The notes: a model not told the origin generated them from the letters alone. Counted from the stretch's first letter, positions 62,132 through 62,802 are shown. The stretch: DNA of 64,000 bases from Escherichia coli (GCF_044324875.1 NZ_CP172185.1), one strand, 5' to 3'. Numbers and translations are program-made.

Positions 62132-62802
62132 TTTGCGCACTCCTGACGTTTAGCAACATATGCGGCTTGCCCTGAACACCGGGCACCACTGTATTGATGC
62201 TCATTTTCCATAGCCATTCCCTTTTGTTCATTACATCCATGTCAGTCTGAGACAGGCCTGAATCCTGTCAGCAAAGTATAAAACCTTACTTGCCTATGAA
62301 TATCTACTGACTTTTCAGGAAAAAAGTCATGATTTGATAAAAATCATCAAACTCAAAAAAAAACCGCTACTATATTCTGAATATTCCGAATAGTTACGTA
62401 GATGAAAATACTTGTCACCGCCGCTACTTAATTTCGGTGGGAAATTATTTATTTCCGCATAATCAGCCATGTATTATTTGAAACAATTAGTTTGCAAATA
62501 ATATAAATTGATAACATATCAAATACATCAAAAATACCATTCACAGGCATTATTAATATAGACCTCAATATAGCAACATCAAATTCCAATTAGTAATAAG
62601 ATATGCTTTTAAATTGCATGCAAATAATTTTAAATGAGCGTTTTTTGATACTTTAGAGTGTTTCCTACCCTTTAATATCACTGTGTAGAGTTGATATCAC
62701 TACAACAGAAACATGCATGTCATTTTTTTACTTCTCTTTTACTACAGAAAAATTTATCTATTTTTCTAAACATCAGTGAAATACTCATAAAAGGTAACTA
62801 TT

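Follow-up and report, generated by a model that had tools for sequence, protein, structure and literature searches.

The Intergenic Region between iraD and yjiC of Escherichia coli as a Probable Compound Control Region of iraD

The Locus and Its Surroundings

The DNA considered here is a window of 64,000 nucleotides from an Escherichia coli genome (GCF_044324875.1, NZ_CP172185.1), read as one strand, at the end of which the gene order is iadA, hypT (yjiE), iraD, yjiC and uxuR. The iraD gene, whose product matches the NCBIfam equivalog model NF010726 over its full length (residues 1–130; 300.4 bits against a cutoff of 198), is divergent from yjiC, and the gap between the two start codons, at 62131 and 62803, measures 671 bp. 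A first-pass annotation made from the sequence alone had correctly reported a gap of about 660 bp between divergent genes, but had set its left edge at 62141, beside an in-frame GTG; since the start codon of iraD, as annotated and as experimentally used, is the ATG at 62131 and not the GTG at 62140, the gap is 671 and not 662 bp long. On its other side, iraD converges on hypT (60835..61746, plus strand); the two genes share 8 bp at their 3′ ends, which leaves no room for an intergenic terminator between them. The features of the locus are collected in Table 1.

Both the length and the composition of the gap had been singled out in that annotation, and rightly so. The gap is the third-longest in the window between non-overlapping open reading frames (ORFs) of at least 100 codons, for which the median is 94 bp. 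Its GC content is 32.2% as a whole and 27.7% in the 501 bp from 62300 to 62800, against a window mean of 49.3% (standard deviation 6.4%, in 500-bp windows), so that this part lies about 3.4 standard deviations below the mean, while the roughly 170 bp adjoining iraD are of ordinary composition (45.8% GC). The gap is unusual yet not unique for its AT-richness within the window, as at least four comparably AT-rich stretches occur elsewhere, at about 11–12, 33–34, 37–38 and 47–49 kb. Outside the gap, strongly AT-rich stretches were noted at about 11900–12500, 33000–34000, 38100–38900 and 47000–49000, with a GC fraction down to 0.27 in 500 bp; their coordinates in the closest annotated genome, taken as colinear with the window, fall near type I restriction genes, symE and the lgoT/tsr junction.

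The gap had also been described as non-coding, which does not hold: RefSeq annotates idlP, ytiD and ytiC in it on the minus strand, translation evidence has been published for all three frames, and the longest wholly unannotated piece is about 240–250 bp (62551/62566..62802). The main content of the region, namely three translated small ORFs together with a translational-coupling switch formed by CsrA and idlP, had been overlooked. The segment 62100–62850 is 98.8% identical to that of K-12 MG1655, and 4890 of 5426 complete E. coli genomes carry it at no less than 95% identity and 80% coverage. Set against the iraD region of K-12, whose control is already known in detail, the locus is the same, with idlP, P2, all four CsrA sites and the P1 hexamers identical. 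The few point differences all fall in the distal leader: a Tyr-to-Cys change in ytiC, three amino-acid replacements in ytiD, of which one goes with a single-base change in a HusR motif, and, upstream of yjiC, an indel of 1 nt and one substitution (A in the window, C in K-12).

Table 1. Features of the iraD–yjiC region, in window coordinates.
Feature	Position	Strand	Description and basis
iraD CDS	61739..62131	-	anti-adapter protein IraD, 130 aa; NCBIfam equivalog NF010726, Pfam GPW_gp25, RefSeq
idlP (ORF27)	62128..62211	-	27-codon iraD leader peptide; ORF list, RefSeq WP_120795393.1
iraD Shine-Dalgarno	62140..62144	-	AGGAG, read from sequence; within idlP coding sequence and predicted SD-sequestering helix
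CsrA site BS4	GGA 62207-62209	-	overlaps idlP start codon; published footprint -78/-77
CsrA site BS3	62215-62221 (GGA 62218-62220)	-	overlaps idlP SD; published footprint -90..-84
CsrA site BS2	62234-62243 (GGA 62236-62238)	-	published footprint -112..-103
CsrA site BS1	GGA 62263..62265	-	window reads ACAGGA, starting 3 nt after 62268
Promoter P2 (inferred)	62268..62280	-	-10 TATACT 62275-62280; TSS ~62268 (-137/-138)
ytiD (ORF47)	62327..62470	-	47 codons, in P1 leader; ORF list, RefSeq, Park 2017 lacZ fusion
HusR (YnfL) gSELEX motif match	62367..62382	-	within ytiD; table in PMC12844172
Long-haplotype-only segment	62396..63773		upstream ytiD, ytiC, P1, AT-rich spacer, yjiC and 3′ flank; BLAST homology break
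ytiC	62449..62550 (or ..62565)	-	33-aa form from ATG 62550; RefSeq; 38-aa form in some genomes
Promoter P1 (inferred)	62548..62582	-	-35 TTGATG 62577-62582, -10 TATATT 62555-62560; TSS ~62548 (-417)
Most AT-rich spacer	62583..62802		GC about 26-28%; composition
yjiC	62803..63633	+	DUF2686, 276 aa, 40% GC; Pfam PF10887, 503 bits; RefSeq annotation

Two Promoters of iraD

The two iraD promoters were reportedly mapped by Merrikh in 2009. In K-12, the distal promoter P1 is dependent on sigma-70 and the proximal promoter P2 on sigma-70 or sigma-S, both are ppGpp-dependent, and a distance of 280 nt separates the two transcription starts (Park 2017, PMC5574718). For the window, the two starts were reconstructed from the end-points of the fusions in that study, which lie at −138 in the lacUV5 leader construct, at −134 in the one for P2 and at −413 in the one for P1, and the P2 start was additionally placed by the statement that it lies 3 nt upstream of the GGA of BS1. 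The starts obtained in this way, at about 62548 and 62268, are likewise 280 nt apart, a −10 hexamer sits 7 nt upstream of each, and the P1 leader is about 417 nt long. The exact hexamers of P1 and P2 are those that we infer from these positions. The first-pass annotation had thought of multiple iraD promoters, an idea which agrees with the publication of P1 and P2 for K-12 (PMC5574718) and with the matching −10 hexamers at the right positions of the window.

Promoter prediction, which the same annotation had proposed as a check, gave no excess over shuffled sequence: a simple scan with the sigma-70 consensus found five promoter-like sites, against 5.0 ± 2.4 in shuffles. TTGATG-16-TATATT at P1 is one of these five matches, and because their number is no higher than in shuffles, P1 and P2 are not singled out by the sequence alone. 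The scan also contains a weak promoter-like site on the plus strand, at 62776–62804.

Control of iraD by SspA and DnaA is said to have been described by Sass in 2022. Replication stress imposed with AZT induces the transcripts of the locus independently of LexA, with ytiC rising 260-fold, ytiD 33-fold, idlP 18-fold, iraD 14-fold and yjiC 11-fold; the induction is partly SspA-dependent, and ytiC has been termed cotranscribed with iraD (PMC11228462). For DnaA, control of iraD has been claimed; ChIP-seq saw no DnaA at iraD, and a search for DnaA boxes (TTWTNCACA, at most one mismatch) gave 133 in the window against 122 expected, two of them weak and in the gap, and none convincing.

CsrA Sites, idlP and Translational Coupling

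Downstream of P2, the leader reaches idlP, whose ATG is at −80 relative to that of iraD and whose last codons, GCA AAA TGA, run into the start of iraD, the TGA and the ATG at 62131 sharing the sequence ATGA. This small gene corresponds to the ORF27 of Park 2017 (PMC5574718; mBio 8:e01355-17), now named idlP, which has 27 codons and a stop codon overlapping the iraD start. According to that study, the leader of iraD has four CsrA sites, CsrA blocks the initiation of idlP translation, and the repression of iraD is brought about entirely via lost translational coupling (Park 2017, PMC5574718). BS1 was found to function only in P1 transcripts, P2 transcripts having just 3 nt ahead of its GGA (Park 2017, PMC5574718). 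In the window, the GGA motifs of the putative BS2, BS3 and BS4 coincide exactly with the published offsets from the iraD ATG.

This arrangement can be set beside other CsrA-repressed leaders in which the Shine-Dalgarno (SD) sequence of the regulated gene itself is occluded (Park 2017; reviewed in PMC7652899). It resembles them in having several GGA sites in the 5′ leader, one of them over an SD, and in that repression lowers both translation and mRNA stability. It differs from them in that the occluded SD is that of idlP and not that of iraD, that the CsrA site nearest to the iraD SD is 58 nt away from it, and that repression operates solely by translational coupling.

A structure sequestering the iraD SD has been mapped experimentally (Park 2017, PMC5574718). 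In the predicted minimum free energy (MFE) fold of the full P2 leader of the window, the SD is paired, with a z-score of −0.13. In local folds, it pairs with +12..+18 in three of four Escherichia alleles and is unpaired in the 66-nt MFE structure of the window itself, and the z-scores of the local SD hairpin are weak (−0.7 to −1.5). Because the whole P2 leader has a z-score of only −0.13, thermodynamics alone would lend no support to a special leader structure. The SD-sequestering helix is invariant among the Escherichia alleles compared and therefore offers no covariation for testing the structure.

Long and Short Forms of the Locus

In 491 of the 5426 E. coli genomes (about 9%), only the part of the query next to iraD is matched, at about 75% identity. 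In both of the two such genomes examined, yjiC is missing, and uxuR with its terminator is followed immediately by iraD on the same strand. The same short arrangement is present in E. whittamii, in Escherichia sp. E1V33 and in the divergent assemblies E69 and SCPM-O-B-8794 labeled as E. coli, and the long arrangement, with yjiC, is also that of E. albertii. BLAST homology between the window and the short loci ends at 62395 (62410 in E69) and returns at 63773/63774. Weak residual similarity as far as about 62466 is suggested by a MAFFT alignment. As homology breaks flank it in the short loci, the DNA comprising P1, ytiC, the most AT-rich sequence and yjiC forms one block, which is present or absent as a unit.

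All relatives recovered in the scan belong to Escherichia, the outgroups E. fergusonii and Salmonella not being among the matches. On the evidence of the aligned leaders, the core from P2 to idlP is universal across the Escherichia alleles compared. Among the CsrA sites, BS2 and BS3 are kept in all of these alleles. Conservation is poorer for the weak sites: E. albertii, alone in having lost BS4, also lacks BS1, as do the short-haplotype alleles.

Some further observations concern individual alleles. In the alignment, E. coli GmF052, which has the short haplotype, carries a 27-nt tandem duplication in the leader that copies the idlP SD, with BS3, and the start codon in frame, and that would lengthen the leader peptide by nine codons to 36 aa. 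The common E. coli iraD allele shows just 76–82% DNA identity to every other Escherichia allele compared, the E. albertii and short-haplotype iraD alleles are 83–85% identical to each other, and the short-haplotype leaders are 96–98% identical across named species, with the exception of E69 (77–79%). This pattern in the aligned sequences is suggestive of an ancient split between alleles or of interspecies exchange. Finally, the contig NZ_ABFU01000118.1 (605 bp), from the draft genome of Bacillus coahuilensis m4-4, encodes an IraD 98% identical to the E. coli protein, and is almost certainly a contaminant of E. coli origin in that draft.

Constraint on the Proximal Leader

Variation within the species was assessed in 12 long-type E. 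coli genomes picked across the identity ranking. In this sample, the 201 bp from 62128 to 62328, which begin at the idlP stop codon, take in the leader and end 60 bp upstream of the P2 start, contain no segregating site, while iraD has 29 in 393 bp, a rate at which about 15 would be expected in 201 bp. The idlP protein, WP_120795393.1, is identical in 11 of 11 annotated long-type genomes. For this small sample, the comparison argues that the core formed by P2, the leader and idlP would be under strong constraint at the nucleotide level.

The idlP reading frame and its stop/start overlap with iraD are kept in eight of eight Escherichia alleles aligned, and E. albertii, E. whittamii and other Escherichia retain idlP, the overlap, BS2, BS3 and the P2 region at a leader identity of 64–79%. 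Across Escherichia, the middle of the peptide varies freely, and both the 5′ and the 3′ ends of the gene are conserved, third codon positions included. Such a pattern fits the published view that it would be the act of translating idlP that matters, and not the peptide.

On the far side of the gap, the 5′ part of yjiC (62803–63290) is very polymorphic in the 12 E. coli genomes, with a nucleotide diversity (pi) of 0.048, about twice that of iraD; of its variable codons, 46 are nonsynonymous and 17 synonymous, and the annotation of strain AR_0162 marks yjiC as frameshifted.

The AT-Rich Distal Half and H-NS

H-NS reportedly lowers iraD expression, a result attributed to Battesti in 2012. The spacer 62583..62802 presumably holds the upstream elements of P1 together with the unmapped promoter of yjiC. 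In K-12, the yjiC/iraD spacer (526 bp) is listed among 78 'promoter islands' (Panyukov and Ozoline 2013, PMC3661553), and this island is flagged as H-NS-bound in the ChIP data sets of Kahramanoglou and of Oshima and is linked to genes predicted to be foreign (PMC3661553). The first-pass annotation had expected binding by H-NS from the composition, and the flagging of the K-12 copy in these two data sets (PMC3661553) bears it out. One site in the spacer, at 62751–62760 on the minus strand, matches the H-NS high-affinity motif (TAGATAAATT) at nine of ten positions; this motif shows no enrichment, the window having 11 such matches where 6.5 are expected and seven of 100 shuffles reaching 11. We infer that H-NS acts directly on the spacer DNA between iraD and yjiC.

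The K-12 spacer is itself one of these promoter islands, and the copy in the window is equally AT-rich. Promoter islands have been described as transcriptionally almost silent, whereas the iraD spacer has two mapped, regulated promoters; moreover, the islands were defined with PlatProm, while the simple consensus scan used here gives a density of promoter-like sites no higher than in shuffles. A match to the gSELEX motif reported for HusR (YnfL) lies within ytiD, and reads CAGAATATAGTAGCGG in the window and CAGAATATACTAGCGG in K-12, one base being different. A palindrome (I1) found in a repeat search partly overlaps this motif, and besides this palindrome, the search of the region returned just short repeats, which are probably due to chance.

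The distal half of the gap, from about 62400 to 62802, could on this evidence be taken for xenogeneic AT-rich DNA that arrived with yjiC, an H-NS-silenced promoter island with many abortive starts and with no specific regulatory role other than silencing. Its GC content of 26–28%, its listing as an island associated with predicted foreign genes (PMC3661553), its absence, as an indel, from about 9% of E. coli and from several Escherichia species, and a level of polymorphism equal to that of iraD itself are all in favor of such an account. Nevertheless, we consider it unlikely, as the segment includes P1, which is active and ppGpp-responsive in published fusions (Park 2017), the RNA derived from P1 is the most AZT-induced transcript of the cell (PMC11228462), and BS1 acts on no transcripts other than those from P1. 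The segment is also old, since E. albertii carries it too.

A reading that keeps a regulatory role for P1 is put forward only tentatively: the distal half, with P1, ytiC, the H-NS-bound AT-rich DNA and yjiC, may be an AT-rich module associated with yjiC that was gained or lost as a single block of about 1.3 kb, P1, on this view the strongest of the stress-inducible promoters of iraD, may have been recruited from xenogeneic, H-NS-silenced DNA, and strains with the short haplotype may control IraD by P2 alone.

The Small ORFs of the P1 Leader

Between the starts of P1 and P2 lie ORF47, which is ytiD, and ORF23, both of which are translated as lacZ fusions; stop mutations in either of them leave iraD expression unchanged (Park 2017, PMC5574718). 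From the coordinates of the fusion used in that study (−498..−376), ORF23 in the form tested starts at the ATG at 62517 and equals the C-terminal part of annotated ytiC. The annotated length of ytiC differs between genomes (69, 99, 102 or 117 nt). A 33-aa protein from the ytiC frame, there named 'ytiB', has been detected with an SPA tag by chromosomal tagging (VanOrsdel 2018). The start codon annotated for the 33-aa YtiC (62548–62550) overlaps the inferred P1 start at −417, and this form could therefore not come from P1 transcripts. Both the ytiC and the ytiD reading frames are intact in the window.

These data raise the question of whether ytiC and ytiD are functional small-protein genes, the region then being a four-gene operon, ytiC-ytiD-idlP-iraD, and not a regulatory leader. 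The translation of both ORFs in lacZ fusions and the tagged 33-aa YtiC speak for it, as does the place of ytiC and ytiD among the most AZT-induced transcripts (PMC11228462); in addition, YtiC is hydrophobic, and E. albertii keeps its frame open at the corresponding place although the DNA, which is AT-rich, is only about 70% identical. However, the stop mutations without effect on iraD argue against it, and so does variation in the 12 E. coli genomes, where all 13 variable codons are nonsynonymous (nine in ytiD and four in ytiC, with no synonymous one in either) and where one frameshift and one loss of the start codon were found in ytiD and one premature stop in ytiC. Furthermore, in E. albertii the ytiD start is gone and the frame is shifted, both ORFs are missing or disrupted in the short haplotype, and no NCBIfam or Pfam model matched any of the three small peptides of the region (idlP, ytiD, ytiC). 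In this small sample of 12 E. coli, the sequences argue against purifying selection on the peptides of ytiC and ytiD, and we regard the operon of small-protein genes as improbable.

Still less credible, to the point of being highly improbable, is an independent gene for an unannotated small regulatory RNA in the spacer, as proposed in the first-pass annotation: about 420 nt are transcribed without a long ORF, and the 260-fold rise of 'ytiC' RNA under AZT, compared with 14-fold for iraD, might stem from a 5′ RNA that is shorter and more abundant, but the idea was dropped because a permissive Rfam scan (E ≤ 1) gave only noise, in the form of three sub-threshold matches to eukaryotic snoRNAs (18.3–25.4 bits against gathering thresholds of 50–52). 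A scan of 61900–63000 for intrinsic terminators likewise gave no terminator-like hairpin on either strand, the mapped P1 leader explains the transcription of this space, with ytiC described as cotranscribed with iraD, and the distal leader varies within E. coli (pi about 0.012–0.021), is poorly conserved in E. albertii and absent from the short haplotype.

A Compound Control Region

We consider it very probable that the stretch is a compound control region of iraD, lying back to back with the promoter of yjiC. All of its elements are present in the window at exact spacing, in DNA nearly identical to that of K-12, and the core of P2, leader and idlP is conserved at the nucleotide level. In the order in which they would be read on the minus strand, the elements are P1 (start at about 62548), ORF23/ytiC, ORF47/ytiD, P2 (start at about 62268), BS1 to BS4, idlP and iraD.

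By analogy with the K-12 literature, from which promoter activity, CsrA binding, translational coupling, H-NS occupancy and induction by AZT and SspA are taken, the region would work as follows. Transcription would start from either P1 or P2, both of which, as published, respond to ppGpp and growth phase, and replication stress, as with AZT, would strongly induce the transcript in a LexA-independent manner, partly via SspA. On this transcript, the ribosome-binding site of iraD would be held in a helix and be weakly accessible, and because of this helix iraD would be translated mainly by ribosomes finishing idlP. CsrA bound to the GGA sites over the idlP ribosome-binding site would block idlP translation, and iraD would then be repressed both by the loss of coupling and by faster mRNA decay. 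H-NS on the very AT-rich distal half would keep iraD, and probably yjiC as well, at a low level in unstressed growth.

The present comparison adds to what is known of the K-12 locus the invariant core of P2, leader and idlP, the apparent lack of purifying selection on ytiC and ytiD in a small sample, and the presence/absence polymorphism of P1 and yjiC. This last could serve to ask what P1 naturally contributes. Should the tentative view of a distal module with P1 recruited from it prove true, the control of IraD, and with it the stability of RpoS under replication stress, would run via P2 alone in about 9% of E. coli, as in E. whittamii and related genomes, and the long and short haplotypes would amount to a naturally occurring polymorphism in the regulation of the general stress response. 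As IraD stabilizes the stress sigma factor RpoS, the region between iraD and yjiC would set the manner of E. coli's entry into the general stress response after DNA damage and starvation.
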